From positions 1 through 38,369 of the forward strand of contig CANRCI010000002.1 in the NCBI GenBank assembly GCA_947629075.1: a DNA stretch of 38,369 bases. The letters are read 5' to 3'. Made by a program: the position numbers and the translations under genes. The first letter of the stretch is position 1, and each line of letters starts with the position of its first letter. This DNA comes from an uncultured Bacilli bacterium (GTDB taxonomy: Bacteria > Bacillota_I > Bacilli_A > RF39 > UBA660). Below are positions 907 to 34,900 of this stretch, piece by piece. The notes under the pieces are model-generated. The model was not told the origin of the DNA, did not search any database, and saw nothing but the letters and a program-made list of their open reading frames with translations.

Positions 907-911
907 TTGTT

Positions 912-937: not shown

Positions 938-966
938 TTGTTAAAAAAAGTATATTGCTGTATAAT
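938..966 (+). promoter_or_regulatory. Sigma-A-type promoter for dusB operon
   Basis: TTGTTA (938-943), 17-nt spacer, TATAAT (961-966), directly after the terminator. Confidence 0.6.
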
Positions 967-996
967 ATGAGTGCTTTAAATGTTAGGTGTGATACT

Positions 997-2686: not shown

Positions 2687-4161
2687 ATGAGTTTACAGAA
2701 CAAGAACAAGTAAGAAGAAATAAGGTCGAAGAGATTAGAAAGACTACTAATCCATATCCTGAAAGATATGAGGTCAATTACTCTTTAAAAGATGCTCATG
2801 AATTAGAGGATGGAACGACAAATGTTAGAGTAGCTGGTCGTATCGTTTTAATGCGTAAAATGGGAAAGATGAGCTTTTTGACAATTAGAGATATCGAAGG
2901 ATCTATTCAATTATCTGTTAAGATGGATATGGTCGGTGAAGAGAAATATAAATTCTTTAAAGAGAGCTTTGACATAGGTGATTTCATCGGATGTGAGGGT
3001 GAGGTATTTACTACTCATACTGGTGAAAAAACAATTCGTGTCAGCAGTTTTGAATTTTTAGGTAAAGCATTAAAACCACTTCCAGAAAAGTTCCATGGAT
3101 TGACTGATCCGGAGCTTTGTTATCGTGAACGCTATGTCGATTTAATCATGAATGAAGATACGAGAAAACGTTTTATTACCCGTATTAAGTTCATTCGTGA
3201 GCTTAGAAATTACCTAGATAATTTAGGCTATATGGAAATAGAAACACCAATTCTTAACAATAAAGCTAGTGGTGCTTCAGCTCGTCCATTTAAGTCACAT
3301 CACAACGCTCTAGATATGGATGTCTATTTGCGAATCGCACCAGAGACTTATTTAAAGAGAGCTGTAGTTGGAGGTTTCCCAAAAGTTTACGAAGTTTCTA
3401 GATGTTTTAGAAATGAAGGAATGGATGCTTCTCACTTACAAGATTTTACGATGGTTGAAGGTTACCAAGCATACTTCAATTATGAAGACAATATGAAGTT
3501 GATTCAAAATATGTTACAGACAATTATCATGAACATTTTTGGAACTTTAAAAATTCAATTTGGTGATAAAGAGATCGATATGAGTGGTGACTGGGGAAGA
3601 GTAAGTTTCCGTGAGGTTCTTATCAAATACGCTAATATCGATATCAAAGAATACAATACTAAAGAAAAGTTACTTGCGAAGATTTTAGAAGAAAAAATCG
3701 AAGTAGAAAGTGAAACACCACTTGAGAATTTGGGATTTGGTAATTTAGTTGATGTACTATACAAAAAAGTAGCTCGCCCACATATGCTTGGACCTGTTTA
3801 CTTAACTGAACATCCAACTAGTCTATCACCCCTTGCTCGTAGTAATGACGATAATCCAGAAATAAGTGATCGCTTCCAATTAGTTATCAATGGAGCAGAA
3901 ATTGTCAATGCTTATTCTGAGTTAGTAGATCCACAAGAACAAGAGAGAAGACTTTTAGAACAAGCTAAATTAAAAGCTGAAGGTGATGAAGAAGCAATGG
4001 ATATGGACTACAACTATATTCATGCGATGGAATATGGTATGCCTCCTATATCTGGTTGGGGTATGGGAATTGACCGTATCGTTCAACTTTTAACTAACAG
4101 TGAAAATGTTAAAGATGTAGTAATGTTCCCACTTATGAGACCATTAGATGATGAAAGATAA
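2683..4161 (+). CDS. lysS: Lysine--tRNA ligase (class II)
   Basis: 492 aa. OB-fold N-domain (VRVAGRIVLMRKMGKMSFLTIRD) and class II motifs (YLRIAPE, FRNEG, GMGIDR). RBS GAAGGGAG upstream. Confidence 0.95.
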   Translation: MNEFTEQEQVRRNKVEEIRKTTNPYPERYEVNYSLKDAHELEDGTTNVRVAGRIVLMRKMGKMSFLTIRDIEGSIQLSVKMDMVGEEKYKFFKESFDIGDFIGCEGEVFTTHTGEKTIRVSSFEFLGKALKPLPEKFHGLTDPELCYRERYVDLIMNEDTRKRFITRIKFIRELRNYLDNLGYMEIETPILNNKASGASARPFKSHHNALDMDVYLRIAPETYLKRAVVGGFPKVYEVSRCFRNEGMDASHLQDFTMVEGYQAYFNYEDNMKLIQNMLQTIIMNIFGTLKIQFGDKEIDMSGDWGRVSFREVLIKYANIDIKEYNTKEKLLAKILEEKIEVESETPLENLGFGNLVDVLYKKVARPHMLGPVYLTEHPTSLSPLARSNDDNPEISDRFQLVINGAEIVNAYSELVDPQEQERRLLEQAKLKAEGDEEAMDMDYNYIHAMEYGMPPISGWGMGIDRIVQLLTNSENVKDVVMFPLMRPLDDER

Positions 4162-16472: not shown

Positions 16473-16500
16473 TTGATTTTTTGAAAAAAACATGTATAAT
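16473..16500 (+). promoter_or_regulatory. Sigma-A-type promoter for the surface-fibre locus
   Basis: TTGATT (16473-16478), 16-nt spacer, TATAAT (16495-16500), about 35 nt upstream of the first gene. Confidence 0.55.
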
Positions 16501-16535: not shown

Positions 16536-18482
16536 GTGATTTTTGTGAATGAAAAAGAAAAAAAGAGAAAGAGAAAAATAAAAATTTTCTTTGCTAGTGC
16601 AGCAGTATTTGTTTTAGGTGTTGTGGGATATCAAATTAATAAGTCACCGGATCACGATTTAAATAGCGGAAAAGTAACAGTAGTAGTTCCGGATACTCCA
16701 AATAAGGATGTCGAAGATACTCACGAAGGTGATATGACAACGACAACAACTACTGAAGAAGCTGAAGACTTTGTAATCGATCAAGTTACTGAATCAGCCG
16801 ATAGTATAATTGGTGATATTTCATCAGTAGTCGATGCGGTCGACGATAAAAATATTACGGGTAAAGATCAAGAAACTAGTCAGGGTCAAGTAGCAGTTAA
16901 TCCAACTACTCCTAGTAAGCCTAGTACTCCAAGTAAACCTACTAAACCTAGTAAACCAAGTGAACCAGATACTCCAGTTAAACCAGAAATTCATGTTCAC
17001 GTTTATAGTGATTTACTAAATTATGACGACGATGTCGAATATATAAAATGTAATGGCTGCGATTTAATTATCACGAGAGCTCATAAACTTGGTGATAAAG
17101 TTTACGATAAAGAGAATCAAGAGTTAGTAGAAAAATGTGAAAACCCAGATTGTACTTACGAAATACGTACAACTCACAAATATCATCAAACTTTGAATTT
17201 TAAATCGGCAAGTGATAAAGGTGAAGAGTATGAGTGTGATGAATGTGGTGAAATAATAACTAAAGCTCATACTTACGGTGAAGTACATTACGATAAAGTA
17301 ACCCATGAAGCAATTCAGGATTGTGAGAATGAAGAATGTGGTTACGAACATCGCGAACTACACAAAGATCACGTTAGTACAACATTTAAATCAGCTGATA
17401 AAGAAAAAGAGATTTGGGAATGTGATGACTGTGGTGCCGAAATCGATAAAGACCATGTCTACGGTGCAGTTCACTACGACAAAGTAACGCACGAAGAAAT
17501 CAAAGATTGTGAAAATGAAGATTGTGGTTACGAACATCGTGAATTACATCAAAACCACACTAAGGCAACCCTTCAGTCACATACATCTGAAAAAGAGACT
17601 TGGAAATGTGATGATTGTGATGCAGAATTTGATAAAGCTCATGTCTATGGAAATGTGCATTACGATAAAGGTACGCATGAGGAAATTAAAACTTGTCAAA
17701 CTCCAGGATGTGGCGAAGAAGTTCGTACTGAACACCAAAACCACGTAAATGCTACATTTAAATCAAACGATAATTTAAAAGAAACTTGGGAATGTGACGA
17801 CTGTGGAGCAGAGTTTGAAAAAAGCCATGTTGTTGGAGCAGTTGAGATTGAAGAAGGAACATTTGACTGGGTTCAAAAATGTGAGACTCCAGAATGTACT
17901 TACGAAATCAGAGATCCACATGAAAATCATCACAACTATAAGATAGCTTCAAATGATGAAACTCATGAACATTGGGAATGTGAAGATTGCCATGATACAT
18001 TTGAAAAAGAACACGTCTTTAATGTAGGTGTAGAACAACCAGATGGAACACTTCTACAATCTTGTCAAAATGACGGTTGTGACTATCAGAGATATTGGCA
18101 TAACCATGTAGTTGGAAATGAAGAAAAAGTATTCTATAAACACGATGGTATCTATGATGAAAAAAAATGTTACACAATTATCTACAAATGTAGAATTTGT
18201 AACGAAGAAGTAAGAAGAGTAGATTACAACCACGATTTTGAAGAATATGCTGAATTTGGAATCAAGGTTTGTAAGAATGCTGGATGTGGTTATGAAGTAG
18301 AATATGAACCAATAAATGAAGTAAACGGAGTTAAAATAACTCAAGCACCAGCTGCAGCATTCGATACAACGGGATTAACTACCGAAACTTATGAAGCACC
18401 AACTTTGGAAGAATTTGAAAAAGAAGAAGAAGAAAAAGGGAAGGTATTATCATTATTACCTACTAAAAAAGAAGAATTTTAG
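16536..18482 (+). CDS. Membrane-anchored protein with acidic/Thr-rich and PT-rich linkers and seven Cys4/His-rich repeats (no family recognised)
   Basis: K/R-rich N-terminus plus one TM (IFFASAAVFVLGVVGY), linker PTTPSKPSTPSKPTKPSKPSEPDTPVKPE, then repeats of the form W-E-C-D-D-C-G-x24-C-E-N-x2-C-G-Y-E-H-R-E-L-H. Non-ATG start (GTG 16536 or 16545), uncertain. Confidence 0.7.
   Translation: MIFVNEKEKKRKRKIKIFFASAAVFVLGVVGYQINKSPDHDLNSGKVTVVVPDTPNKDVEDTHEGDMTTTTTTEEAEDFVIDQVTESADSIIGDISSVVDAVDDKNITGKDQETSQGQVAVNPTTPSKPSTPSKPTKPSKPSEPDTPVKPEIHVHVYSDLLNYDDDVEYIKCNGCDLIITRAHKLGDKVYDKENQELVEKCENPDCTYEIRTTHKYHQTLNFKSASDKGEEYECDECGEIITKAHTYGEVHYDKVTHEAIQDCENEECGYEHRELHKDHVSTTFKSADKEKEIWECDDCGAEIDKDHVYGAVHYDKVTHEEIKDCENEDCGYEHRELHQNHTKATLQSHTSEKETWKCDDCDAEFDKAHVYGNVHYDKGTHEEIKTCQTPGCGEEVRTEHQNHVNATFKSNDNLKETWECDDCGAEFEKSHVVGAVEIEEGTFDWVQKCETPECTYEIRDPHENHHNYKIASNDETHEHWECEDCHDTFEKEHVFNVGVEQPDGTLLQSCQNDGCDYQRYWHNHVVGNEEKVFYKHDGIYDEKKCYTIIYKCRICNEEVRRVDYNHDFEEYAEFGIKVCKNAGCGYEVEYEPINEVNGVKITQAPAAAFDTTGLTTETYEAPTLEEFEKEEEEKGKVLSLLPTKKEEF
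17043..18310 (+). repeat. In-frame tandem coding repeat, 186-nt (62-codon) period, 7 copies
   Basis: The first Cys codon of each CxxC is at 17049, 17235, 17421, 17607, 17793 and 17979 (exactly 186 nt apart), then 18189. Copies 2 and 3 are also clearly similar at nucleotide level. Confidence 0.9.
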
Positions 18483-18502: not shown

Positions 18503-19189
18503 ATGAAAAAGAATGATAAAAAATGGTACAAATCAGTTAGCAATTGGATATTTATACTTGTTTGTATAATTCTATTGCCAATTTTGTTAATGAATATTTG
18601 GATAATGGTCCAAGCAAAAAATGAACCGGATAAAATACCTAACGTATTTGGTTATAAACCTTTTATAGTTTTATCAGGTTCAATGGAAACAGAGATTTAT
18701 AAAGGTGATTTAGTAATTGCTAAAATGATTGATCCTAAAGAATTAAAAGTTGATGATATCATAGCATTCAGAGATCAAGAAAATACAGTTACAACCCACC
18801 GAATTATTGATATTGTAGAAGATGATGGTGAGACATTCTTTATCACAAAAGGTGATAACAACAACACTCAAGACCAAAATCTAGTTGAATACGAAGATGT
18901 CGAAGGAATTTATGTCTTACGTGTTCCTGGTGTTGGTAACTTAATGAATAGTCTTTCTGAAACAACTACAGTTGTAATAATAATAATGGGAATAACGATA
19001 ATATTTATCTTAGGTTTCTCAATCTCTAATAGAAAAGAGAGAAAAAAGGAAAGAGAAGAATATTTAGAATACAAGAAGATGAAAGAACAAGAGGAAAAAG
19101 AAAAACAACGAGAAGAAAAGCCGAAGGCTAAAAAGACAACGACCCCAAAGAAGACAACGAAGAAAAAGACAGATAAAAAGTCAAAATAA
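18503..19189 (+). CDS. sipW: ER/archaeal-type signal peptidase I (SipW-like), copy A, with Lys-rich C-terminal tail
   Basis: N-terminal TM, LSGSMETEIYKGDLV (Ser box), TTHRIIDI (His box), ITKGDNNNTQD, a C-terminal TM, then a charged tail of about 55 aa (RKERKKEREEY...KKTTKKKTDKKSK). Confidence 0.85.
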   Translation: MKKNDKKWYKSVSNWIFILVCIILLPILLMNIWIMVQAKNEPDKIPNVFGYKPFIVLSGSMETEIYKGDLVIAKMIDPKELKVDDIIAFRDQENTVTTHRIIDIVEDDGETFFITKGDNNNTQDQNLVEYEDVEGIYVLRVPGVGNLMNSLSETTTVVIIIMGITIIFILGFSISNRKERKKEREEYLEYKKMKEQEEKEKQREEKPKAKKTTTPKKTTKKKTDKKSK

Positions 19190-19298: not shown

Positions 19299-19898
19299 AT
19301 GAAAAAGAAAATAATCGCTATATTCGCTCTATTATTTGCTGTTGTATTAACTGGATCTTCAGTTAGTGGAACATATGCAAAATATGTAAGTGAGGTAAAA
19401 GGAACTTCTGACGAGGCAAGAGTAGCAAAATGGTCTTTTAAGGTTAATAATGAGGAGACAACTGCATCAAAAACTTTTACATTTAACTTGTTTGATACAA
19501 TAAAAGATACTGGTGATGCTCAAGAAGATGATGTTAAGTCAGGAAAGATTATAGCTCCAGGTACTGAAGGAAGTTTCAAATTGAGTTTGAAAAACGAATC
19601 AGAAGTAAATGCAAACATCAAAATAGATTATACAGTAACTAATAATAATGAAATTCCAATAGAATTTAGTACAGATAAAAAGAATTGGAAGGATACTTTA
19701 GATGCTTTACCAGAAGAAGAAATAGCTATGGAAAGTGGTACGAAAGATGTTACTGTTTATTGGAGATGGACTTATGACCCAAGCAGTGGGGGGGATACAC
19801 GTACTTCTGACACTGATGAAACAGATACCACTCTAGGTCAAGCTGGAGAGGCTAAAGTTAAGGTTGAAGCTAAGATTACTGTTACTCAAAAAGATTAA
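19299..19898 (+). CDS. Secreted TasA/camelysin-like small subunit P1 (SipW-dependent-type signal peptide)
   Basis: MKKKIIAIFALLFAVVLTGSSVSGTYAKYVSE; a beta-rich, Cys-free mature part with IIAPGTEGSFKLSLKNESEV and VYWRWTYD. Strong RBS GGGGGGAGGTG 7 nt before ATG 19299. The track's ATG at 19248 lies inside upstream hairpins. Confidence 0.75.
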   Translation: MKKKIIAIFALLFAVVLTGSSVSGTYAKYVSEVKGTSDEARVAKWSFKVNNEETTASKTFTFNLFDTIKDTGDAQEDDVKSGKIIAPGTEGSFKLSLKNESEVNANIKIDYTVTNNNEIPIEFSTDKKNWKDTLDALPEEEIAMESGTKDVTVYWRWTYDPSSGGDTRTSDTDETDTTLGQAGEAKVKVEAKITVTQKD

Positions 19899-19910
19899 TG
19901 CAATTAAAAT

Positions 19911-19970
19911 GAAAGTTAAATTTATTTAACTTTCAAATAAGTCCATGAGAAATCGTGGATTTATTTGAAA
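19911..19970 (+). promoter_or_regulatory. Two overlapping stem-loops between P1 and P2 (partial terminator or RNA-stability element)
   Basis: GAAAGTTAAA-TTTA-TTTAACTTTC (19911-19934) and TTTCAAATAAGTCCA-N10-TGGATTTATTTGAAA (19931-19970, one G-T pair). The arms share TTTC. Neither has a clean U-tract. Confidence 0.5.
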
Positions 19971-20003
19971 ATTAAAATCAAATTAGAAGGGAGTAGAGGG
20001 ATA

Positions 20004-23000
20004 ATGAATAAGTCTAATAATGATGAAAAAAGAAGATTTAAAATGATCATTATGATGTTAATTATTATTATCATTATTCTTTTACTTATAACTAGTTGTA
20101 ATTCTAAATATTGGGGTAGAATTGGTGAATACATTAATGAAACAGAAGTAGATTTAGATGATGATAGTGGCGAAAGAGATGTTATTTTAAATAAAAATTT
20201 AAGATTTGATGATGATAAATTTAATTTATATTTGAGCGATGTTGATGGTAGGTTGTCTTTTCACTATACAAATATTAAGCCTACTAATCTTACGTGTACT
20301 ACTAGTGATTCTGATATAGCAACTTGTTTTGTTAAAGATGGTTATGTAGTAGTTCATCCCAAAGATACTGGTGATATCGATGTTGTTGTAGAAGGTCTTG
20401 CTAATGGAAAGAAATATCGAGCTAAATCAAAGGTAAAAGTTAAAGACTCTAAACCGTATATAAGTTTATCTAGTAAACGTGGAACTATTAATCTTAAAGG
20501 TAATAAAAAAATAATTGTGTCTTATAGATTAGTAGGAATATCTGGTAATGTAACTGTTGATATTGATAACGATTCTATAGCTGATGTCAGTGTTAAGAAT
20601 GGAGTTCTTACAGTCGTTGGTAAGAAAGTAGGAAAAGCTAAGATTACAGTATCTGTTAAACGCAATTCCAAGACTTATAAAGATACATATAATTTAACAG
20701 TTATTAATACGACTAATAAAAAGAAATCTTCTAAGAGTAGTGATAGTTCATTAAAAAGCTTATCTTCCTCAAAAGGGAGGGTTAAGCTTAAGAGTGGAGT
20801 TTATGATTATTATGTTTCAGTAGATAATAGTGTTAAAAATTTAGATATTGATGCTGTACCTCGTGATAGCAAAGCTAAAGTTAAATATAAAGTAAATGGT
20901 AAAGTAGTAGATAATTTAAATGATGTTGAATTAAAAGTTGGTAACAATAAAATAGAAATAGTGGTTATAGCTGAAGATGGAAGTAGTACTACTTATCATG
21001 TTAATGTTAATAGATCTAAGCCTAGTAAATCTAGTAATAATTCATTATCTGAATTAAAAGTAAGTGAAGGTAGTTTGAGCCCTAAATTTAATGAGAAAGT
21101 TTTAGATTATCATGTTACTGTTGACTCTAGTGTTGATAGTATCGATATATATCCTAAAGTAAAAGATAAAAAAGCTAAAGTTAAATATAGATATAAGGGT
21201 AGAGAAGTAGAATCTCTTGAAGATTTACCACTAGAATTTGGTGATAATAAAGTTGAAATTTTGGTTACTAGTGAAAGTGGAGAAACTAAGAAATACACAG
21301 TTACTGTGGAAAAAAAGAAAAGCGATGACAACTATTTAAAAGATTTAGATGTATCTAGTGGTTCAGAATTGAAGTTTGATAAAAACACTAATAGTTATAC
21401 TGTTAATGTTCCTTATGATCAAGATACAATAACTGTTACTAGTGATGTTGAAGATTCTAAAAGTAAAACTAGTTATAAATTTAATGGTAAAGAAGTAGAA
21501 TCTCTTGAAGATTTAGAGCTAAACCCTGGAGATAATGAAGTAGAAGTTACAGTTACTAGTGAAAGTGGTAAAAAGAGAACTTATAAAGTTACTATTCATA
21601 AAGCTGTTAGAACTGTAGAATTTGATAGTAGTAGTTATACATTGGATATAGAAAATACTGGTATATTAGTTTATCGTGTCTATGAAGATGGTGTTCTTTT
21701 ATCTGATGATCAATATGATAAAGATGATATAGATTTTACTATTGAAGGATATCAAGGTACGATTGAAAAACACAATGGTTATATTTCGTTGATACCTGAT
21801 CCAAGTATGGCTGATGAAACTAAGAAAGCAACTATTCAATATGCTGGTTCAAGTTCTAGTGCTGATGTTACATTTAGGTACGTTGAACACTTTGTAAATT
21901 CACCAGTTGATGAATATGATGTCGATTTTACTGGTGATAATAATGAAAGAAGTTTTGTTCTACACAATAACATGTTTAGTGGAAATGTTAAGAGTAAGAG
22001 ATTGAACGATAGAACTATTCGTGTTTATGAAGAAGGAAACGAAGATATTTATATTGATATAGAATATGATCCTGATGAATTAGAAATAGAATCAGTTGAA
22101 GGTAGTACTTCAGTATCAGTAACAGTTAAACCTAAGAAATCTGGAAAGCTTAAATTAGGTGTAAGTGGATATTATAAAGGTGTTCCTGTTAATTCATTTC
22201 CAATTATAATAAATTCTATTATGAAATATATATTGAAATTGGATGCGAATGGTGGATATTTTGATCAATTTACTACTTATTATGAATTTGCATTAGAAGA
22301 AGATACAAACTTCGATTTAACTGATTACTTTGATGGTTATTATGAAGATGAAGATTGCTTACATTATCAGTTAGAATCTTTTAATACTTCCAAAGATGGT
22401 TCTGGTACTAAGTACGATTTTGATAATAAAAATATTGTGATAAAAGAAGACACAGTATTGTATGCGATTTATTCTAAAGATCCAATTGATGAACCGATCG
22501 AAGAAGAATACAATTATTACTTAGTCGATGTTGATTTATTCCATAATGAAGAGTATTTCCAAAAATATAATCGTGATAAAATTATTTATCCTGGTGCGAC
22601 TGGTTTTTATAAAATGACATTTGATAATAATACATCTTCTGATATAGAGATAACAAGTGTTACTTTAGAAGAAGATACTATTTGTGTTGATGAAGATGGT
22701 GTTAAGGGTTGTCTTAATATGGGATATGCTGTAAGAGATTATGAAGGTAATTACTATTTAGGTGGTAATAATAATTACAGTATTGTAAATAGGAAAGCTG
22801 ATGAAGTAGATGGTTATCATACTAAAAAAGTTATTACATTTAAGGATCCGATTACTTTAAATCATGGAGCATCAACTGAAATACATCTATTGTGGCAGTG
22901 GGTTGATTTTGATGATGATGGACCTAATGATAAATTAGATACTAAGATTGGTGATTATGCTGGTAATAAACTTAATGACATGTATCAGTTAACAGTTAGT

Positions 23001-23048
23001 ATTCAATTTAATAAAACCAAGACAACTTGTGATAAGAATGGTGGTTAA
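20004..23048 (+). CDS. Large multidomain surface protein P2: Big_2-like x2, cadherin-like beta-sandwich x3, Listeria-Bacteroides-type repeat, P1-like C-terminal domain
   Basis: ATG 20004 follows GAAGGGAG/AGAGGG. N-terminus MNKSNNDEKRRFKMIIMMLIIIIIILLLITSCNSKYW. Big_2-like SDSDIATCFVKDGYVVVHPKDTGDIDVVV and NDSIADVSVKNGVLTVVGKKVGKAKITV. Three units of SL(S/K)xLxVSxG...Y.V.V...TYxVxV. LKLDANGGYF...DGSGTKYDF...DTVLYAIY. The C-terminus parallels P1. The track's TTG at 19965 lies inside a hairpin. Confidence 0.75.
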   Translation: MNKSNNDEKRRFKMIIMMLIIIIIILLLITSCNSKYWGRIGEYINETEVDLDDDSGERDVILNKNLRFDDDKFNLYLSDVDGRLSFHYTNIKPTNLTCTTSDSDIATCFVKDGYVVVHPKDTGDIDVVVEGLANGKKYRAKSKVKVKDSKPYISLSSKRGTINLKGNKKIIVSYRLVGISGNVTVDIDNDSIADVSVKNGVLTVVGKKVGKAKITVSVKRNSKTYKDTYNLTVINTTNKKKSSKSSDSSLKSLSSSKGRVKLKSGVYDYYVSVDNSVKNLDIDAVPRDSKAKVKYKVNGKVVDNLNDVELKVGNNKIEIVVIAEDGSSTTYHVNVNRSKPSKSSNNSLSELKVSEGSLSPKFNEKVLDYHVTVDSSVDSIDIYPKVKDKKAKVKYRYKGREVESLEDLPLEFGDNKVEILVTSESGETKKYTVTVEKKKSDDNYLKDLDVSSGSELKFDKNTNSYTVNVPYDQDTITVTSDVEDSKSKTSYKFNGKEVESLEDLELNPGDNEVEVTVTSESGKKRTYKVTIHKAVRTVEFDSSSYTLDIENTGILVYRVYEDGVLLSDDQYDKDDIDFTIEGYQGTIEKHNGYISLIPDPSMADETKKATIQYAGSSSSADVTFRYVEHFVNSPVDEYDVDFTGDNNERSFVLHNNMFSGNVKSKRLNDRTIRVYEEGNEDIYIDIEYDPDELEIESVEGSTSVSVTVKPKKSGKLKLGVSGYYKGVPVNSFPIIINSIMKYILKLDANGGYFDQFTTYYEFALEEDTNFDLTDYFDGYYEDEDCLHYQLESFNTSKDGSGTKYDFDNKNIVIKEDTVLYAIYSKDPIDEPIEEEYNYYLVDVDLFHNEEYFQKYNRDKIIYPGATGFYKMTFDNNTSSDIEITSVTLEEDTICVDEDGVKGCLNMGYAVRDYEGNYYLGGNNNYSIVNRKADEVDGYHTKKVITFKDPITLNHGASTEIHLLWQWVDFDDDGPNDKLDTKIGDYAGNKLNDMYQLTVSIQFNKTKTTCDKNGG
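20740..21605 (+). repeat. Three tandem cadherin-like beta-sandwich coding repeats (about 288-nt period)
   Basis: Identical 24-nt run GAAGTAGAATCTCTTGAAGATTTA at 21204-21227 and 21492-21515 (288 nt apart). GTTACTAGTGAAAGTGG is also shared. Confidence 0.85.
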
Positions 23049-23049
23049 G

Positions 23050-23625
23050 ATGAAGAAGTTAAAAAGAATAATAACTGGTGTTGTAGGAGTTATCTTAGCG
23101 CTTATCTTGTTGTTCAACATCTACAATTTCATCAACATAAAAATATTGAAAAATGACCTAACCACAGTCTTTGGTTATTCAGTGTTAGAAGTAGTATCTG
23201 GTTCGATGGAACCAACTATTAAAAAAGGTGATTTGATAATTATCAAAGTCAAAAACTTTGAATATCACCCAGGGGATATTGTGACTTTCACTGATGTCGA
23301 AGGTTCATTTGTAACCCACAGAATTGTAATGTTACAAAGAGATAAGATGACTACTAAAGGTGATAACAACAATACTGAAGATGAAAGCTTGCCAGCTAAA
23401 AACATCATTGGTAAATATATGTTTAGAATTGCTGGATTTGGAACTATATTACAAACGATAAAAAATCCTGTCGTAAGCATTATGATATTTGTAATTGGTG
23501 TTCTAATATGCTATGTCTTGGTCGATAATGAAGAGAATAAAGTTGTACCTTTAGAAGAACAAGCTGAATACGATAAATATTTAGTTGAGAAAAAGAAAAA
23601 TAGACAAAATAAAAAGAAAAGGTGA
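23050..23625 (+). CDS. sipW: ER/archaeal-type signal peptidase I (SipW-like), copy B
   Basis: VVSGSMEPTIKKGDLI, VTHRIVML, TTKGDNNNTED, C-terminal TM and a short KKKNRQNKKKR tail. ATG 23050 lies 1 nt after the P2 stop and 5 nt after GGTGG. Confidence 0.85.
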   Translation: MKKLKRIITGVVGVILALILLFNIYNFINIKILKNDLTTVFGYSVLEVVSGSMEPTIKKGDLIIIKVKNFEYHPGDIVTFTDVEGSFVTHRIVMLQRDKMTTKGDNNNTEDESLPAKNIIGKYMFRIAGFGTILQTIKNPVVSIMIFVIGVLICYVLVDNEENKVVPLEEQAEYDKYLVEKKKNRQNKKKR

Positions 23626-23630
23626 AAATT

Positions 23631-24266
23631 ATGAAAGGATTATTACATAGTAAAAGATTTCGCAAAAACTTATCTAAATGGTTATTTATGTATATAGGAA
23701 CTATGCTTCTATTTACTACTGTAATAACCTATTCTAAATACATCAGTAGTATGATGAGTAGCGATGGAGCACGAGTTGCTAAATTCGATGTTTCAGTCGT
23801 ATCTGATAAGTGTTCATCTACTGAGAATGGCAGTTTGGAATGTAATACTGGTAAGTATCGTCCAACTCAAGAGATAAAATATTATTTTACTCTAAAAGCA
23901 AATGTTGAAGTTAAAACCGATATATATTTAACAGTATTTTTAAATAATTCATTCAAGATGATTAGTGTTAAAGAAGTTGGAAATGCAACTCCTGAAAGTA
24001 TTGTTTGTAACACTGGAGATGTGAGTGATCGAACGATTGCTGGATATACGAGATGTAAATTTAAAGCTAAAGAATTTGCTTTAGACCAAGAACAAAAAGA
24101 GAGAAAATATGAAGTAACAGTTAAGTTCGATAATACTTATTGTTCTAACAAAGAAAGTGAGTATTATTGTAATCAAAATAAAGACCCAGAGGATTATAAG
24201 AGTGTTACTAATGATTTATACAATATATTGCGAGTTGACTATGCAGCAACTCAGGTAAAAAATTAG
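23631..24266 (+). CDS. Secreted TasA-like small subunit P3 (P1 paralog with three Cys pairs)
   Basis: LFMYIGTMLLFTTVITYSKYISSMMSSDGARVAKF parallels P1 GTYAKYVSEVKGTSDEARVAKW. YYFTLKANVEVKTDIYL parallels P1 FKLSLKNESEVNANIKI. ATG 23631 lies 6 nt after AAAGGTGA. Confidence 0.7.
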   Translation: MKGLLHSKRFRKNLSKWLFMYIGTMLLFTTVITYSKYISSMMSSDGARVAKFDVSVVSDKCSSTENGSLECNTGKYRPTQEIKYYFTLKANVEVKTDIYLTVFLNNSFKMISVKEVGNATPESIVCNTGDVSDRTIAGYTRCKFKAKEFALDQEQKERKYEVTVKFDNTYCSNKESEYYCNQNKDPEDYKSVTNDLYNILRVDYAATQVKN

Positions 24267-24278
24267 AGGGGGATTATA

Positions 24279-26015
24279 ATGGAGTTTACTGATATATTAA
24301 AAAAACGAGCTATCATTGATAAAATTATCTTTTATGCATTAGCTTTCATATTCATTGGCAATATTATTGTTGTTACTCCTACTTGCTCTAAGTATGTTTC
24401 TGAAAAGTCTGATGCGGTGATATATAACAATAATCTTTATACTGTCAATAAAGGTAATCTTGCAATTCACTATGAGGAAAATTTATCTGAAAGTGATGTA
24501 TTGGTTGCTACTTTTCGTTTATCTCCAAATGATATTGGGGTAGCTCATGAAGACGATAAATATATGATTAGTTTTACTGATGGATGTACTTTATCAATTT
24601 ATGATGGAGATGAAAATGTAATTAGTAATAGTTCTGATTATAAAGAAATGAAAGTATCCGGAGAAGTTATTATACTTGCTACTTGTCCAGTTGCAACTTC
24701 TGATATTAAAGATGGTAATAGATATAAAGTTGAAGCCTCTATTCGTGAACAGGCAAATAATGAAGATGTATTTGTATATCAGAGTGGTTATGCTGTAGTT
24801 GCTAGCTTACCTCAAAAGGAAGAAACTGGGACTACTAAGAAGGTAGTTACTGGTGAAGGTGTTAATGTCTATGGAGAATTAAAAAAATGGTTATTTAGTT
24901 ACACAGATCAAAATTATAGTGATCAAACAGCCTCTGAGTTTAAAAGATTAATTGAACAATATATAGCAAAGTATGAAAGTAATGTTTTTGATGATGGTTT
25001 ACCAGGATTAAAGATTGAAAAACAGAGTGATGGTTATTTATTTACAATAGAGGATAACTTGTTTGGTTATGCTAGAACGTATGATGATTATTTACTTGGC
25101 AGAAGTGTTAAGACGTTTTATTTTCATACTGATAATGAGGATGCCAAACGTGAAGCTTTTGATTATTATTTAGAAAATTATACCGGTTTAAGCGCTAGTG
25201 ATGTTGTGACTGTTAAAAAATATTTAGAGTTAAATAATTTTGACATCATTACTTATCTAGCGACTGGGACTCCAGCAATTACTGGTTTGAGCAGAGGATC
25301 ATCAGGTGAAGAAAATATTGGTGTTATGGTTTCTAGATTGTTGAGTGCAGCTCAGGCAGCTTTCCCTACTGGTGATGAAGGAGCTAGGGACGATGGACCT
25401 TCTATTGAAGAACCTACAAATCCAACTCAACCTGTTGAACCAGATGAACCTGAAGTAACTGATCCACCATTTGATAATTCATCTATTCCATTTGGAACAA
25501 GAGAAGAAATGATTAAATATTTTGAAAGTTATATGAACAATATTAAAACAACTCATCCTGAATATAACATTTCAGAAGAAACGATAAATAGTATTATTTC
25601 TAATCAAGATATTGTTGAATCAGCTGTTAAAAATAACACTGAGTCAGGAGTAACAGGAGCATTTAATGATTACTTTAACATCGTTGATGGTAATCAATAT
25701 TTACTCGTTAAAGTTTATTCTGATGGAGTATCTAACAATATGTTAGAAATCAAAGAAACTGGTATTAGTACTGATATGGTAAGTACCTTTGAAATAATTA
25801 ATAATCCTGATAATACTTTAAATGTTAATTTTAAATTTACAGCTTTAGATTTAGAAAACATCGAAGTTACCGAAGAAGAAATAGCTAAAGTAAAAGAAAT
25901 AGTTACTTTACTAGATAAGACATTTGAAGTAAATAATCTTGATGATTTAGATACCACTGAAATACTTAAAAATGAAGGGGTTATTGAATTTAGTTATCAA
26001 ATTCAAAATCAATAG
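24279..26015 (+). CDS. Exported or membrane-anchored 578-aa protein P4, unknown function
   Basis: N-terminal TM IIFYALAFIFIGNIIVVTPTCSKYVSE with the shared SKY motif; internal Pro-rich linker EEPTNPTQPVEPDEPEVTDPP. RBS AGAGGGGGA. No recognisable domain. Confidence 0.65.
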   Translation: MEFTDILKKRAIIDKIIFYALAFIFIGNIIVVTPTCSKYVSEKSDAVIYNNNLYTVNKGNLAIHYEENLSESDVLVATFRLSPNDIGVAHEDDKYMISFTDGCTLSIYDGDENVISNSSDYKEMKVSGEVIILATCPVATSDIKDGNRYKVEASIREQANNEDVFVYQSGYAVVASLPQKEETGTTKKVVTGEGVNVYGELKKWLFSYTDQNYSDQTASEFKRLIEQYIAKYESNVFDDGLPGLKIEKQSDGYLFTIEDNLFGYARTYDDYLLGRSVKTFYFHTDNEDAKREAFDYYLENYTGLSASDVVTVKKYLELNNFDIITYLATGTPAITGLSRGSSGEENIGVMVSRLLSAAQAAFPTGDEGARDDGPSIEEPTNPTQPVEPDEPEVTDPPFDNSSIPFGTREEMIKYFESYMNNIKTTHPEYNISEETINSIISNQDIVESAVKNNTESGVTGAFNDYFNIVDGNQYLLVKVYSDGVSNNMLEIKETGISTDMVSTFEIINNPDNTLNVNFKFTALDLENIEVTEEEIAKVKEIVTLLDKTFEVNNLDDLDTTEILKNEGVIEFSYQIQNQ

Positions 26016-26038
26016 GAACAATTAGTTCCTATTTTTTG
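26011..26038 (+). terminator. Intrinsic terminator closing the surface locus
   Basis: AATAGGAAC-AATTA-GTTCCTATT plus T-run. Confidence 0.8.
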
Positions 26039-26207: not shown

Positions 26208-26221
26208 TAGTCTAAATATTG

Positions 26222-26250
26222 AAAAGCTACTATAAATAGTAGCTTTTTTT
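26222..26250 (+). terminator. Intrinsic terminator/attenuator about 20 nt upstream of the ABC exporter start
   Basis: AAAAGCTACTA-TAAA-TAGTAGCTTTT perfect 11-bp stem plus T-run. There is no room for a promoter before RBS AAGGAGG (26256-26262). Confidence 0.75.
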
Positions 26251-26271: not shown

Positions 26272-27996
26272 ATGAAGAATAACAATTTAATTTTTAAATA
26301 TTTAAAAGATGAAAAATTAAAAGTTTTTGTTTATGTTATCTTAGTATTAACTTCTTATATACCAACTTTAGGAGCAGCCTTCTTTTGGGGATTAGCTCTT
26401 GAAAAATTAATTATCAGAGATTTTAATAATTTTGTAATATATCTTGCTCTATGGGAAGGTATTTATATCTTGTTCTATGCTGTATTATCAGTACCTAGAG
26501 ATTATATATATAACGTTATAGAGATTAAATTTACTAGAAATGTTATGAAGGATTTATATCATAAAGTATCTAATTTACCAGCGATTGCTTTTGAAGATAT
26601 CGGTGTTGGTGAATTTATTAACAGGATGTATACAGATCCAGAACGTATTATGGAATTGTTATCTAAACTTATTAGAATGACTTGTCGTGCTTTTGTTGTT
26701 TTAGCTGTTACCGTAATAGCTTTTAATGTTTCTTTAATACTAGGAGTAGAAATAATTATTTTCGGAATAATAATGGGATTTATTTCGTATAAGTTCTTTC
26801 CAAAGATTAAGAAAACTCAAGAAAGTATTAAGAAAGAAACAGATAAATATGTTAAAACTGCTACTGAAAACTTGAGTGGGATAAGAGAGATTAAGTCTTT
26901 AGGTATTAAGAAGAATATTGAGAATCGTATTAATAATAATCTTAATAAATTGTTTGAGAATTCGAAAAAGATTAAGAATAATGAAATAATTTATTATAAT
27001 TTAAACAATCTTACTTATTTCGTATTACAATTCATCATTCTATTTACTTGTGGTAAATTATTTATGGATGGAGTTATGAGTTATAGTACATTCATTATAA
27101 TTGAATCATATATATGGCGAATTGATGAAGTTGTCGAAAGTATTAGTGATTTTGGAGTAAGTTATAATAAAGTTAAGGTATCGATGAAGAGAATCGGTGA
27201 AATATTAAATAATGAGTTATATCTAGATGAGAAGTTTGGAAACGAAGAAATAAGTAATCCTGAGGGAATAATTGAGTTTAAAAATGTTAAATTTAAATAT
27301 CGTCCTGAGGAAGAAGAGACTTTGAAAAACCTAAATTTAAAGATTGATACTAATAAAAAGGTTGCAATAGTTGGACGAAGTGGTAATGGTAAGTCGACAA
27401 TATTTAATTTGTTACTTAGATATTTTGACGCTACTAGTGGAAAGATATTAATCGATGGAATTGATATTAAAGATTTAACTGAAGAATCACTTCGTAATAA
27501 TATCTCAATAATTAGACAAAGTCCATTTTTATTTAATATGAGTATTAAAGATAATTTTAGATTAGTAAAAGATGATGTAACATTGGATGAAATAAAAGAA
27601 GTGTGTAAGAGGGCTTATATCGATGATTATATTGAGTCTTTACCTAATGGTTATGATACTGTTATAGGTGAAGGTGGTATAAACTTGAGTGGTGGACAAA
27701 AACAAAGAATTGCTATAGCTAGGACTTTGCTTTTAAATACAAAAATCATTTTATTTGATGAAGCAACTAGTGCTTTAGATAATGAATCACAAGACTATAT
27801 TAAAAAAACGATTGATAATTTAGTAAAAGATCATACAGTTGTCATCGTTGCTCATCGTCTATCAACGATAATGGATGCGGATATCATTCATGTAATCGAA
27901 AAGGGAAGATTAGAGGCTTCTGGTACACATAAACAATTGTTAAAGACATCAAAGGCTTATAACAGTCTATATAAGACAGAATCCTTAAATTCATAA
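26272..27996 (+). CDS. ABC exporter, fused permease/ATPase half-transporter (type I exporter fold)
   Basis: Six-TM N-terminal domain. Walker A GRSGNGKST, Q-loop IIRQSP, signature LSGGQKQR, Walker B ILFDEATSALD, H-loop VAHRLST. No C39 peptidase domain. Confidence 0.9.
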   Translation: MKNNNLIFKYLKDEKLKVFVYVILVLTSYIPTLGAAFFWGLALEKLIIRDFNNFVIYLALWEGIYILFYAVLSVPRDYIYNVIEIKFTRNVMKDLYHKVSNLPAIAFEDIGVGEFINRMYTDPERIMELLSKLIRMTCRAFVVLAVTVIAFNVSLILGVEIIIFGIIMGFISYKFFPKIKKTQESIKKETDKYVKTATENLSGIREIKSLGIKKNIENRINNNLNKLFENSKKIKNNEIIYYNLNNLTYFVLQFIILFTCGKLFMDGVMSYSTFIIIESYIWRIDEVVESISDFGVSYNKVKVSMKRIGEILNNELYLDEKFGNEEISNPEGIIEFKNVKFKYRPEEEETLKNLNLKIDTNKKVAIVGRSGNGKSTIFNLLLRYFDATSGKILIDGIDIKDLTEESLRNNISIIRQSPFLFNMSIKDNFRLVKDDVTLDEIKEVCKRAYIDDYIESLPNGYDTVIGEGGINLSGGQKQRIAIARTLLLNTKIILFDEATSALDNESQDYIKKTIDNLVKDHTVVIVAHRLSTIMDADIIHVIEKGRLEASGTHKQLLKTSKAYNSLYKTESLNS

Positions 27997-29724: not shown

Positions 29725-30996
29725 TTATCCAACATATTCAAAACCTAGCCATTGACTGTTGAAAGCATTGTCTTTAGACATTTGCCAAATAGTACTTCCA
29801 CCACTGTTGAATTTCATGGTTAAGAATGTTGTCATTGAACCGTAGTACTCTTGCTGAGTTTGTGAATAAGTACAATCAGTATCTAACTTTTTAGTAGCAC
29901 TATTTGGATCATCTCCAGTGTAGTGACACTTACCATTTGGTGAAAGAGTAATTGTAATATTGATGTTATCCATTGGTAAGTTCTTATATTTACCGTATTT
30001 TAAACGATATTTACCAATTTTATAACCTTGAGCTAACTCTTTAGCTTCAGCTTCTTTTCTAGCTTTTTCTTCGGCTTCTTTTTTCTTTTTAACTTCTTCT
30101 TCAGCCTTTTTCATTTCTTCATGTTTTTCCTCAACAGTTTGAACGGCTTCTTTAACTTTTTCTTCTACTTTATCAGTAACAGTTTCGTCTTGGGTAACAT
30201 AATTTTCAACACCAGTTGTGATACTTTCTTTTAATTCTTTATCATCTGATTCTAAATCGAAATCAACAGATTTGTCTTCAGTTTCTACTTCGACAAAAGT
30301 TTCATCAAATTTAGGAATGGATACTTCGTTACCATTGACATCAGTAACCGAAGATTTCTCTCCTTCTTTAAAAGTGTACTCTTGATTAGCTTCTTTTTCC
30401 TCTACTTTGTCTTCCTCTTCATCTTTGTTCTCTTCAGTACTACTGCTTTCATCTTTGCTGTCCTGTGCATTTTCCTCTTTCCATTTTTTTTCTGCTTCTT
30501 CTTGAGCTACATTTAAATCTTCAATTTGACTACCTAGTGATGAATAAACTTCACTGCCATCTCTAGTAGTATGAGTATAGTAATCATATTCCTTTTTTTC
30601 GATGTTGTATAAGAATTCGATTACCATTTTGTTAGAATAAATCATCGTCGTGATACTATCGTTCTTTATGTAATATATGTTGGTATATGTCTCGTTGTTT
30701 TTATCATAAGAAATAGCCATAACGGGATCTTCAACATTTTTAACCTCATAGAAGTTAACTTTAGCTTTCTTCATGTCTTTAGGAAGATTAGCTTCTTCAT
30801 ATTTCTTATTTTCTTTTATATCCTTTAGATATAAATAATATGTTTGTCCCCACTCTTTGGCAATTGGTTTTTGTTCGTCGAGATATTTTTTTATGAAAAT
30901 AGCACTAACTATACCAACCACGATTAGGATAGGAACTACAATCATCAATACTTTTTTGATTGTACTCTTTTTATTCTTTTCCTTTTTCTTTTTCAT
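29725..30996 (-). CDS. Membrane-anchored hypothetical protein with acidic and KE-rich coiled-coil regions (423 aa)
   Basis: The only convincing minus-strand gene. Strong RBS AAGGAGG. K-rich N-terminus plus TM (VLMIVVPILIVVGIVSAIFI), acidic stretch (DSKDESSSTEENKDEEEDKVEEKE), EEVKKKKEAEEKARKEAEAKE, and a beta-rich C-terminal domain. Confidence 0.7.
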   Translation of the reverse strand: MKKKKEKNKKSTIKKVLMIVVPILIVVGIVSAIFIKKYLDEQKPIAKEWGQTYYLYLKDIKENKKYEEANLPKDMKKAKVNFYEVKNVEDPVMAISYDKNNETYTNIYYIKNDSITTMIYSNKMVIEFLYNIEKKEYDYYTHTTRDGSEVYSSLGSQIEDLNVAQEEAEKKWKEENAQDSKDESSSTEENKDEEEDKVEEKEANQEYTFKEGEKSSVTDVNGNEVSIPKFDETFVEVETEDKSVDFDLESDDKELKESITTGVENYVTQDETVTDKVEEKVKEAVQTVEEKHEEMKKAEEEVKKKKEAEEKARKEAEAKELAQGYKIGKYRLKYGKYKNLPMDNINITITLSPNGKCHYTGDDPNSATKKLDTDCTYSQTQQEYYGSMTTFLTMKFNSGGSTIWQMSKDNAFNSQWLGFEYVG

Positions 30997-31939: not shown

Positions 31940-34900
31940 ATGAGTAGGAAAATTAAGTATTTAATAGTTTTAATTTTATCTATTGTTTTATTACCACTTA
32001 ATGTATATGCTGCTGAGGATGTAGCGTTAAAAGTAGATAAAACAGAATTAAAAGCAGGAGATGCGGTTACTGTTACGGTCGATTTAAATTACAGTGATTC
32101 TTTATATGCTTTTACTACTGCTCTTAGTTTTGATGAGAATGTTTTTGAAGTACCAGAGGTTCAAAATTTTAAAGAACAGGGTGAATGGTCAGATGTTACT
32201 TACAACAAAGATAATAAAAAGTTTGCTCTATTGAATAAATCTGGAGAAGCTAAAGAACATTTACTTACAGTAAAACTATTTGTTAAAGATAATCCGGTAT
32301 CTGGAGAGACTGAGATATCTTTGAACAATCCAGTTGCCTCTGATGGGGAAAAAGATATTAATTTTAATAATGCTAGTGCGACAGTGACAATTAAAAAGAC
32401 TGGTAAAGAAGGTCAAGCTAGTTATTCTAAAAAAGATGAAACTGATCAAAATGTTAAAACGGTTAGAACATTTAAACCATTTATAATTGTTGGTAGTGTT
32501 TCTGTTGTTTTGTTATTTGTTGCCATTGTTTTAGTTAATTCTGGCCTTTTGAAAAAGTCATTGATCAAAGATGACAATAAAAAGACTACTAATATAGTTT
32601 TGATTGTACTTCTATTAGTTGCTTTAGCAATTACCGTTCTTTTAGTCATTCTAAATGGTGATAGAGGAGATATAAATGGTGACGGTAAAAAAGATTACGA
32701 GGATGCTAAAAATATTAATGAGTACTTAATTGATATTTATAATGATGAAGATGATGAAGTAGATAAAAAAGAAGTATCTGATAAAACAAGTAAAACTGAT
32801 AAAGAAAAGCAAGCTACTAAAGTTACTAGTGCTAATGATATAAAGAAGTTTGATGTCAATAACGATGGTAAAATCACTATAACTGATGTTGCTCAACAGG
32901 TTAAAGATACTACTAAAAAGACTAATTATAAAGTTGAATTAAAACAGGGTAAAATCGATTATTATCCTAATAAAAAAGAGAGTGTTAAATTAAATTTCAC
33001 GGCTAAAATAACCCCTAATAATGTCCAAATAAAAGAAGTTTATATCAATGGTAAGAAAACGAAAGTAAGTTTAGATGGAAAAACTTATTCCGTAACTGTA
33101 AAAGCTTCTAGTAAAGCAGGAATTGAAGAGTTTAAGATTACTAAAGTTGTTTTAACTAATGGAAGAGAAATCGATACTAAAGATTTAACTTTTACAGTTG
33201 ATGTTTTAAAAGATAATCCTAAAGTAGAGAACTTTAATTATAGTATTGAAAAGCATAATCTTAGTTTCACAATTGAGGATGCTGATAAAGCTCTTAAAAA
33301 TGCTTATATAAAAATTATCAAAGGTGAAGCTAAAATTTCTGATTTTAATACTAAAGATCCTGAAATTGTTGTGCCTGATGATGTAGATCCTGATGACGAA
33401 GACTCTGATGTTAAACAACCAGATGATTTTGAGCCAAAAGAAGTTGTTTTTGAACAAAAAATAGATGTCAATAAGAAGAATATTTCAATCGATCTTGATC
33501 TGGATTTAGGTGAGACTTATACCGTATTGATTACTGGAAGTTATGATTTAGATACTAATAAATTAGATATAAAAAGTAACAATTATCAAGATCAAGAATT
33601 ATATTTTGGTACTTTCTTAAATGGTCAAGTTAAAATTAGAACGTTAACTGATTTAGAGAATTTGTATCCTGAACAAGGAGAAATGGTTATCTTGCCATTT
33701 GAAGTAGATATACAACCAAATACTTTAAGCCAAATTATTTCTAAAGTTGTGTTAGATGGTGTTGAACAAGATGTTGCTTATGATGATGGGCGTTATTTTG
33801 TCGTTTTAGATAGTGCCGATAGTGCTGGTGAAAAGAGTCATACGATAAGTTCTATTATTTTAGATGACAATACAAGAATTTTGTGCAATTACGAAATCGT
33901 CTACGATGTTCTTAAAAAAGAACCTAATTTTGCTAATTTCGTGTATTACGATAGCGAAGGAAAAGTTACATTTAAATTAGATGACGTCGATGGAGCTATT
34001 AGCGATGCTAAAATGATTATAACTAAAAAAGATGAAAGCGACCCTGTTTTTGAAAAAGATTTAAATTTAAATGCTAAGACTTTTGAATACAATGTAAAAC
34101 TTGATAAAGGATCTAAATATGATGTTAAAATAAATGGTCATTACGATTTAGATGAAGACAAAGACAATGATAAAAATGATTACACTGGTACATTAGCTAC
34201 TCATGAATTGACAGTTTATAAGATTGAATTATCACATGCTGGATCATCTGTTTACCATGCTAATAAAGGTGATGAAGTAGAATTAAAATTCAATACCGTA
34301 GTAACTCCAAATGATAATGGTGGAGCAGTTACAAGACTTACTATTAATGGTAAAGATTATTCTCGCGTAAATCGTTATGAAGATGAGGGTAATGTAACTT
34401 ATGGTGTTGTAATTGATGCTCCTGATGTAGCAGGAATTAAAGAGTATAAAATTGACGAAGTTACATTGGGTGATGAAGCTGTACGTCAAAATTTAAGTTT
34501 TGATGTCGATGTATTAAAAGATGTTCCAACAATAGAAAACTTATATATAGATGAAACCAAAGCAGAACCAGTTGTTACTTTTGACATAATAGATAACGAT
34601 AATGCTCTAAAAGAAAATTCTGGAGAGACAGTAGTTAGAAAAAATAAAAGTGACGATGGTACAAAATTTAATGTTCAAAAAGGTGAAAACACTGTAAGTT
34701 TAAAGACTTTATCTGAACAGTTAAACGAAGGTGGAATTTTCTATATGGATGTTAAAGTTAATTATGACTTGGACTCCGATAAAGAAAATGGAAAAAATGA
34801 AGACTCTAAACTTTTGGTTGATGATCACATAATTAAAATTTATAAAGCTAAACTTGAGTTAGCTAGTAAAGATAAATACTATTTCAAAAAAGAAGAGACT

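Follow-up and report, generated by a model that had tools for sequence, protein, structure and literature searches.

A K-Y variant of the SipW-type signal junction in a two-peptidase locus of an uncultured Bacilli bacterium, probably encoding a TasA-kind fibre

SipW-dependent fibres and a locus with two signal peptidases

The SipW-dependent TasA fibres, described chiefly in Bacillus and in a small number of clostridia, serve as the paradigm for the matrix of Gram-positive biofilms. In the TasA system SipW is the processing enzyme, and the N-terminus of TasA (AFND...) is donated in the TasA fibres. The archaeal TasA-like bundling pili and 'thread' filaments also combine processing by signal peptidase I with donor-strand complementation. 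The locus analysed here is located at 16.5-26.0 kb within 38,369 nucleotides of DNA from an uncultured Bacilli bacterium (RF39, UBA660; assembly GCA_947629075.1, contig CANRCI010000002.1, positions 1 to 38,369 of the forward strand), the whole of which we denote the window. Its seven genes run in one direction in the order UP, SipWa, P1, P2, SipWb, P3 and P4; coordinates are those of the window, plus strand unless noted. The locus is probably an operon whose products form an extracellular, SipW-dependent fibre similar to that of TasA, probably assembled by donor strands and belonging to an uncurated family.

A system of this kind, in which SipW, a cognate signal and a TasA-like fibre go together, is already known. 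Like tapA-sipW-tasA of Bacillus subtilis, the locus has a dedicated signal peptidase gene of the endoplasmic reticulum (ER)/archaeal type beside the putative substrates, a T-x-A/x-aromatic junction after a G-rich c-region, and a small beta-sandwich protein as probable major subunit together with accessory proteins; the TasA fibre is the best, though weak, structural match of P3 and is among the top matches of P1. Unlike the Bacillus operon, it has two peptidase paralogues instead of one, K-Y-[TV]-S instead of A-F-x-D on the mature side, shorter subunits, a giant cadherin-like protein that ends in a P1-like domain and an extra block, ARVAKW; moreover, the window proteins have no sequence or profile similarity to TasA/Peptidase_M73.

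SipWa (18503-19189) and SipWb (23050-23625) score 104.1 and 90.5 bits, respectively, on TIGR02228, the model of archaeal/ER-type signal peptidase I (cutoff 51.85). Both carry SGSM, THR and GDNN (at residues 58, 98 and 117 of SipWa), and the general base position is His, not Lys. A sequence-only reading of the window had taken these two neighbours for co-encoded, sipW-like peptidases; the scores above the cutoff and the kept Ser, His and Asp bear this out and assign them to the SipW/archaeal type. On NF046067, the Bacillus SipW equivalog, SipWa reaches 113.6 and SipWb 76.5 bits, both under the 190-bit cutoff; by these scores they are relatives and not orthologues of Bacillus SipW. SipWa has a second transmembrane segment and a Lys-rich tail. 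We noticed that long tails rich in Lys, Thr, Ala and Glu follow the second transmembrane segment in both peptidases (19028-19186 and 23560-23622), and that the tails are longer still in homologous loci, for example in locus L001 (9088-9927 and 13542-14297 of that locus).

To place the locus among its relatives we scanned one genome per species and fetched 80 P1-bearing loci, which are loci chosen through P1. Relatives of P1 were found in at least 171 species; gut Clostridia, uncultured Bacilli/'Tenericutes' and Erysipelotrichaceae make up most of these, and a few are cultured strains, such as Ventrimonas faecis CLA-AP-H27 (L081), Lachnoclostridium sp. An138 (L069) and Ruthenibacterium lactatiformans (L025). 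A SipW-like gene lies immediately 5' of P1 nearly everywhere in the 80 loci and a second one lies 3'; the full seven-gene order is present in about 16-20. The two types keep to their sides of P1, the a-type peptidase lying 5' in 73/75 loci and the b-type 3' in 54/67. The catalytic residues are nearly invariant in both types across 133 relatives from the loci (a-type: Ser 79/80, His 78/80, Asp 75/80; b-type: Ser 53/53, His 53/53, Asp 47/53). SipWa and SipWb are 35% identical, and whereas peptidase orthologues of different species match each other at 250-340 bits, the a and b paralogues do so at 80-110 bits. Since orthologues are closer than paralogues and the gene positions are fixed, the peptidase pair is old and tied to its positions.

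The putative junction motif of P1, P3 and P4

P1 (19299-19898, 199 amino acids) reads T-Y-A-K-Y at 19371-19385, P3 (23631-24266, 211 amino acids) T-Y-S-K-Y at 23727-23741, and P4 (24279-26015, 578 amino acids) T-C-S-K-Y at 24381-24395. Further downstream, P1 carries A-R-V-A-K-W (19416-19433), which runs into the first beta-strand, and P3 carries A-R-V-A-K-F (23769-23786). The four peptide strings on which the sequence-only reading had been built are exact when the DNA is translated: TYAKYVSEVKGTSDEARVAKW at 19371-19433 in P1, TYSKYISSMMSSDGARVAKF at 23727-23786 in P3, TCSKYVS at 24381-24401 in P4 and TSCNSKY at 20091-20111 in P2. That reading had all four proteins share one motif. The claim stands for P1, P3 and P4, where the motif is near-invariant in relatives, and falls for P2, where K-Y is present in 9/19 orthologues.

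An N-terminal hydrophobic segment is predicted in 18 of the 27 window proteins, exactly four of which, all in this locus, have [AS][KR][YF] at the end of the segment. The core [TS]-x-[AS]-[KR]-[YF] stands directly behind the hydrophobic helix in 209/215 P1 relatives and 120/120 P3 relatives. The profile of the 209 anchored P1 relatives is G92% T95% [YF]92% A98% / K94% Y99% T77% S87%; a small-residue linker and then A-R-V-A-K-W come after the junction. All 120 P3 relatives read T-Y-S-[KR]-[YF]. For P4 there are 17 positional orthologues; the 16 that allowed anchoring all have [ST]-x-[SA]-[KR]-[YF], and in the seventeenth (L080), whose open reading frame (ORF) has a mis-set start, H-S-K-Y is still present. 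The motif obeys the -3/-1 rule in all three proteins, with [TS] at -3 and [AS] at -1, and the putative junction in P1 is T(-3)-Y-A(-1)/K(+1)-Y(+2). In P1 and P4 it sits behind an ordinary signal peptide with Gly or Pro at -4/-5.

Profile-profile comparison of P1 with P3 gave an alignment confined to 29 N-terminal columns, including ARVAKW/F (prob 95.9%, E 5.6e-9). The proposal that A-R-V-A-K-[WF] is common to these two small subunits was thereby confirmed, and at the level of sequence profiles it is a real module of P1 and P3. Between P1 and P4 the alignment is confined to the signal and the motif, P4 sharing the five-residue core only. As the profiles align at the N-terminus only, the motif is a module common to otherwise unrelated mature proteins. 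These data also bear on whether the motif is a relic of common descent alone, with P1, P3 and related genes being paralogues that keep an ancestral N-terminus without any specific recognition function: the homologous 29-residue module and the many neighbouring genes that are distant P1-like paralogues speak for such descent, but the N-terminal module has been kept while the remaining protein diverged past detection, P4 and several other BLAST clusters share the five-residue core only, and P2-class paralogues have the P1 domain yet lack the motif, so that we regard this explanation as very improbable.

The junction was compared with those of known SipW substrates. The TasA sequence used is identical, residue for residue, to PDB 8aur_A from A28, giving the junction GGGTWA/AFND; TapA and CalY we take to read T-S-A/A-F and GGGTFA/YFSD. 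Relatives of P1 read GGTFA-KYTS or SGTYA-KYTS and have T at -3, an aromatic residue at -2, A at -1 and an aromatic residue at +2 in common with TasA. The P side of camelysin/CalY of the Bacillus cereus group is thus, if our CalY sequence is right, almost identical to that of P1 relatives. The sequence-only reading had set the motif apart from the G-G-T-[WF]-A-x-F-x-D region of TasA and camelysin; this holds for positions +1 to +4, and it does not hold for residues -5 to -1 and the aromatic residue at +2, which are the same. When tested for T at -3, a small residue at -1 and an aromatic residue at +2, P1 relatives showed T95/A98/Y99%, P3 relatives 100% each and P4 orthologues [ST]100/[SA]100/[YF] ~100%, and P2 failed.

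The SipW-signal model TIGR04088 (cutoff 19) gave 42 bits with TasA, 28 with TapA and 54 with CalY as controls. Replacing K-Y-[TV]-S by Y-F-T-D in silico raised two P1 N-termini from no match to 17-18 bits on this model, and the same swap gave weak matches to TIGR04090 (BsaA) at 14-18 bits (cutoff 60). The position-for-position fit, together with the result of the swap, suggests that the motif is a SipW junction with a different mature side and not a different kind of signal. On sequence grounds, then, the motif of P1, P3 and P4 is a T-x-A/x-aromatic SipW junction in which K-Y-[TV]-S replaces [AY]-F-x-D.

The sequence-only reading had proposed enrichment beside sipW-like genes as a check of the motif. 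For this check the P1 bait family and the peptidases themselves were removed, and a gene was called adjacent when it lay on the same strand within 300 nucleotides of a peptidase gene. In the P1-selected loci, hydrophobic N-terminal segments that end in [AS][KR][YF] were found in 57/125 adjacent genes, in 45/192 genes at 300-4000 nucleotides and in 2/172 more distant genes (odds ratio 71, p = 2.4e-23), a strongly positive outcome. In total, 185 motif carriers were found in 78 loci (median 2, at most 4 in any one locus), and after trimming of the N-terminus their mature parts fell into at least 16 BLAST clusters. Chance as the origin of the motif in P1, P3 and P4 was rejected on family conservation, on this enrichment and on the count of 4/27 in the window.

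Cassettes of the family in L057, L062, L063 and L075 stand on contigs binned as metagenome-assembled genomes of Muribaculaceae or Paludibacteraceae (Bacteroidota), which may reflect either mis-binning or horizontal transfer. A search of plasmid records gave no P1 relative.

The P2 class

P2 (20004-23048, 1,014 amino acids) starts at the ATG at 20004 with a Shine-Dalgarno sequence upstream and consists of a poly-Ile/Leu signal, three cadherin-like domains (Pfam Cadherin-like, E 5.7e-42) and a C-terminal P1-like domain. Its N-terminus fits the motif of the sequence-only reading only through the optional inserted N. A lipobox-like I-T-S-C (20088-20099) is followed by N-S-K-Y-W-G-R-I-G (20100-20126), the conserved portion of which is aromatic-G-[KR]-I-G and not K-Y. 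Among 19 P2 orthologues, a lipobox of the [LIVF][TS]SC type is found in 17/19, [KR][YF] in only 9/19 and aromatic-[FW]-G-[KR]-I-G in nearly all. The caution, voiced beforehand, that ITSC may be a lipobox was therefore justified. The N-terminal profile of P2 did not match the profiles of P1, P3 or P4 beyond the hydrophobic stretch, and by its sequence P2 belongs to a different N-terminal class.

For P2 we consider it likely that the protein is a lipoprotein, cut by signal peptidase II before Cys32 and held by a lipid anchor, and that S-K-Y is coincidental within the aromatic-G-K-I-G motif. The orthologue counts and the distinct N-terminal profile favour this prediction, as do positional homologues elsewhere that have a transmembrane helix with R-x-G-K-I-G and no K-Y. 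On the other side, the lipobox is missing in two orthologues, short homologues of other clades have no Cys at all, and a later second cut by SipW is conceivable. The two orthologues and the Cys-less homologues mean that lipidation is not the ancestral state.

The C-terminal ~240 residues of P2 are homologous to the core of P1 (P1 residues 83-184; hhalign prob 94%, E 1.4e-7, family against family). Family-against-family comparison was needed here, as the P1 profile was uninformative against single P2 or P4 sequences. The predicted P1-like beta-sandwich core of P2 lies at 22572-22964 and is without the K-Y/ARVAKW part. The wider set of loci has 63 genes in the interval from P1 to the second peptidase; 44 of them match the hidden Markov model (HMM) of P1 and 42 that of the P2 C-terminal domain. 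The P1 match in these P2-class genes typically begins only at position ~79, indicating that the K-Y/ARVAKW part is absent from their P1-like domain. At the N-terminus, 30/63 have a transmembrane helix followed by R-x-G-[KN]-[IF]-G (a loose pattern), and K-Y is lacking in the class as such. We noticed this second class of N-terminal motif, a transmembrane helix with [RK]-x-G-[KRN]-[IF]-G (W-G-R-I-G in P2, 20112-20126), in L021, L033, L042, L046 and others. The positional P2-class homologues across loci show that the conserved core of the system, as defined by sequence, is sipWa - P1 - P2-class - sipWb - P3-class. In the clade of the window the P2-class gene has gained the lipobox and cadherin-like repeats, and UP and P4 have been added to the core.

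Proposed fibre assembly, alternative readings and significance

P1 has more than 563 homologues in the 90% database, none of them named and none with a Pfam domain; at 50% identity the family comprises 7,330 clusters at E<=1e-3, of which 3,846 are found at E<=1e-10. Neither Pfam nor NCBIfam has a family for P1, P3 or P4, or for 63 P1 and 68 P3 relatives, and nothing relevant came from searching the PDB sequences with P1, with P3 or with the P1 profile. For P4, a fast-evolving protein specific to the seven-gene form of the cassette, a word-index search of a large database gave no homologues beyond the query, and an iterative HMM search recovered exactly the 17 positional orthologues of the other loci. 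The AlphaFold2 (AF2) models of P1 and P3 are confident (predicted local distance difference test, pLDDT, 83 and 82), and in each of them an N-terminal helix leads into a beta-sandwich of eight strands. In Foldseek, the TasA fibre 8aur_A is the sole PDB match of the P3 model at E<=1e-3 (E 8.1e-4, prob 1.0, TMq 0.41). The P1 model has FimG, FimF and the PapG pilin domain on top (prob 0.97-0.99, template-modelling (TM) score 0.3-0.45, E 1.6e-3 to 1e-2), with 8aur_A at rank 6 (E 5.5e-3, TMq 0.30); homologues, model and matches together make P1, a signal peptide followed by a beta-sandwich, the probable major fibre subunit. Archaeal bundling pili and 'thread' filaments were absent from the top 50 PDB matches of either model.

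From these data we propose the following mechanism. Sec would export P1, P3 and P4, with the shared motif as the junction between signal peptide and mature protein. The co-encoded peptidases would cut between [AS] and [KR], exposing a new N-terminus K-Y-[TVI]-[ST], and this N-terminus would dock into the sandwich of the neighbouring subunit, as the TasA N-terminus, AFND, does. The A-R-V-A-K-[WF] strand, which follows about 12 residues later in P1 and P3, may also insert into the neighbour. The motif would thus be under a dual constraint, its P side imposed by the peptidase and its P' side by assembly, and the invariant residues on either side of the junction fit such a constraint. P1 would be the major subunit, with P3 and P4 as minor subunits that enter the same fibre via the same N-terminal module. 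P2, with a transmembrane or lipobox anchor and G-K-I-G, cadherin-like spacers and a strand-less P1-like acceptor domain, would most likely be the membrane-tethered base or nucleator. Our data directly demonstrate the sequence features and how they are conserved, the linkage of the genes, the type of the peptidases and the P1-like domain of P2, and from these we infer the cleavage position, the assignment of peptidases to substrates, the donation of strands and the roles of the subunits.

Several results weigh against this reading. Native sequences are poorly seen by the existing models: TIGR04088 is silent on the four window N-termini (E<=10) and gives weak matches with 2/63 P1 relatives (best E 0.03), and PF12389 Peptidase_M73/NF046066 (TasA/camelysin) has no match at E<=10 in the window proteins or in 63 P1 and 68 P3 relatives. 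TIGR04089 gave no match in these same proteins. The BsaA family of Clostridium perfringens (TIGR04090), SipW-dependent proteins of the biofilm matrix, is comparable as a clostridial, sipW-linked family of polymerising matrix proteins, yet native P1, P3 and P4 and their relatives do not match its model. Alignment of the P1 and P3 profiles with the TasA sequence by hhalign gave prob <1%, and the structural matches of both proteins are weak (TM about 0.3-0.4, E 1e-3 to 1e-2). With sequence and profile tests against TasA negative, the weak but consistent fold matches support a protein that works like TasA and not membership in its family. At the junction itself, other sites upstream, such as S-V-S/G in P1, also satisfy the -3/-1 rule. 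Finally, ARVAKW has a high pLDDT inside its own subunit in the monomer model of P1, as would fit an ordinary first strand; being packed confidently there, it does not tell an own from a donated first strand. Given the weakly TasA-fibre-like fold and the P2-class domains that are without this module, ARVAKW/F is nevertheless a plausible candidate for a donor strand.

P3 raises the question whether the motif is cut in every protein. Its first 40 residues are the most conserved of the protein, and in 120 relatives the cytoplasmic n-region and the h-region are the best-conserved parts. The consensus of residues 2-17 (23634-23681) is KGLLHSKRF[RK].NL.KW, and such conservation would not usually be expected in a signal peptide that is removed and lost. 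No helix breaker (neither Gly nor Pro) precedes T-Y-S, and in the AF2 model a helix of residues 8-43 continues through the motif with pLDDT 88-97. These three features suggest that P3 may remain anchored, or may be cut only under some condition. Extended to the motif at large, they would place it next to a membrane anchor that is kept, so that no cleavage would occur there, at any rate in P3, where T-Y-S-K-Y...ARVAKF would form a juxtamembrane stalk and the MKGLLHSKRF.KNL.KWLFMY... N-terminus would make P3 an anchoring or terminating subunit. We consider this extension unlikely, as the same [TS]-x-[AS]/[KR]-[YF] core stands behind ordinary signal peptides in P1 and P4, and P3 lies directly 3' of a peptidase gene in nearly all loci.

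It is also conceivable, if quite improbable, that the motif matters for assembly only, cleavage being left to a housekeeping signal peptidase or falling at any site close by, and that the co-encoded peptidases have another role. Type I signal peptidases normally read -1 and -3, yet K at +1 and Y at +2 are the most invariant positions (94-100%), and the aromatic residue at +2 recurs in TasA, TapA and CalY. Such a role would nevertheless leave T(-3) and A/S(-1), which are as invariant as K-Y, and two position-fixed peptidase paralogues with intact catalytic residues, kept in almost every locus, to be explained, and SipW is the processing enzyme of the established TasA system. SipW-type cleavage at the motif followed by docking of the K-Y N-terminus is thus the reading that we prefer.

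Other types of surface filament were also considered. Sortase-assembled pilins were rejected, as the last 60 residues of the seven proteins contain no LPXTG-type signal and the locus no sortase match. Type IV pilins were rejected because the motif comes after, not before, the helix; TIGR04205 was sub-threshold in 5/63 P1 relatives. With chaperone-usher pilins the system has in common a large adhesin-like protein whose C-terminal pilin-like domain lacks a donor strand, resembling the logic of FimH/PapG. This type was rejected as well, since the TM score is only 0.3-0.45, the host is of the Gram-positive type and neither Pfam nor NCBIfam gave a chaperone or usher match in the locus; the likeness is one of fold, and may reflect a generic Ig-like fold. 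Three members of the P1 family (P0181, P0186 and P0213) have the signal, the K-Y motif and the P1 domain followed by 300-450 extra residues, with GDSIS/SGNH-like hydrolase motifs in two of them, a hint that the fibre may display enzymes or have them attached.

The layout of the locus is consistent with an operon: a Shine-Dalgarno sequence precedes each of the seven genes, no internal terminator was seen, and a terminator-like hairpin with a T-run is located at the P4 stop codon (26011-26033). A promoter-like site (16473-16500) lies 5' of UP, the first gene of the cassette; it matches the sigma-70 consensus at 10/12 positions and is a consensus match only. UP (16536-18482, 648 amino acids) is a predicted membrane-anchored protein without the K-Y motif, with a Pro/Thr/Lys-rich linker and seven repeats of ~62 amino acids (CxxC...CxxxxC). 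The linker is encoded by repeats of 9, 18 and 27 nucleotides at 16898-16966, and each repeat reads CxxC...H...CxxxxC, similar to a zinc ribbon, with sub-threshold family matches only. L076 and L082 have sequence homologues of UP at the 5' end of their cassettes; in L001 a gene of similar size (709 amino acids) takes this position, and no sequence similarity to UP was detected in it.

The cassette is flanked by chromosomal housekeeping genes (FtsH, Dus, LysS, ClpC, PrfB and FtsEX-PcsB). A second terminator-like hairpin (26221-26248) also lies between P4 and the downstream gene of an ATP-binding cassette (ABC) exporter (26272-27996), a gene that is not conserved beside the cassette in L001. The only sizeable minus-strand gene of the window (29725-30996, 423 amino acids) has no Pfam match, and GC and AT skew reverse locally at it. 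A giant ORF of more than 2,140 amino acids (31940-38368) runs off the end of the window and encodes a surface protein with a classical signal peptide, VYA/AE, and not the K-Y motif. An Rfam scan of the window returned no RNA families.

Beyond this locus, we advance a wider scheme only tentatively. In it, [TS]-x-[AS]/K-Y-[TVI]-[ST] would be a distinct, uncurated class of SipW-type sorting signal that feeds a very large family of donor-strand fibres in gut Firmicutes. A five-gene core (sipWa, major subunit, anchored acceptor, sipWb, minor subunit) would underlie the family, each peptidase paralogue serving its own share of the substrates. Nucleation of the fibre would fall to the anchored P2-class protein, through its P1-like domain that has no strand of its own. 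P3, retaining its conserved transmembrane N-terminus, would act as a regulated anchor or terminator, and some members of the family would display enzymes.

Measured against Pfam (2025), NCBIfam (June 2026), PDB and general knowledge, four things are new: the K-Y form of the junction, the pairing of the peptidases, an anchored acceptor protein that has no strand of its own, and the size of a family that the curated models miss. The motif marks a far larger set of unannotated loci (7,330 P1 clusters, at least 171 species genomes) that current models of TasA, BsaA and the SipW signal would overlook, and the signature motif together with the paired sipW paralogues would let annotators locate them. 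For experimenters, the motif offers defined residues for mutation, and the paired peptidases and the strand-less acceptor domain a tractable route to the nucleation and anchoring of fibres on gut commensals.

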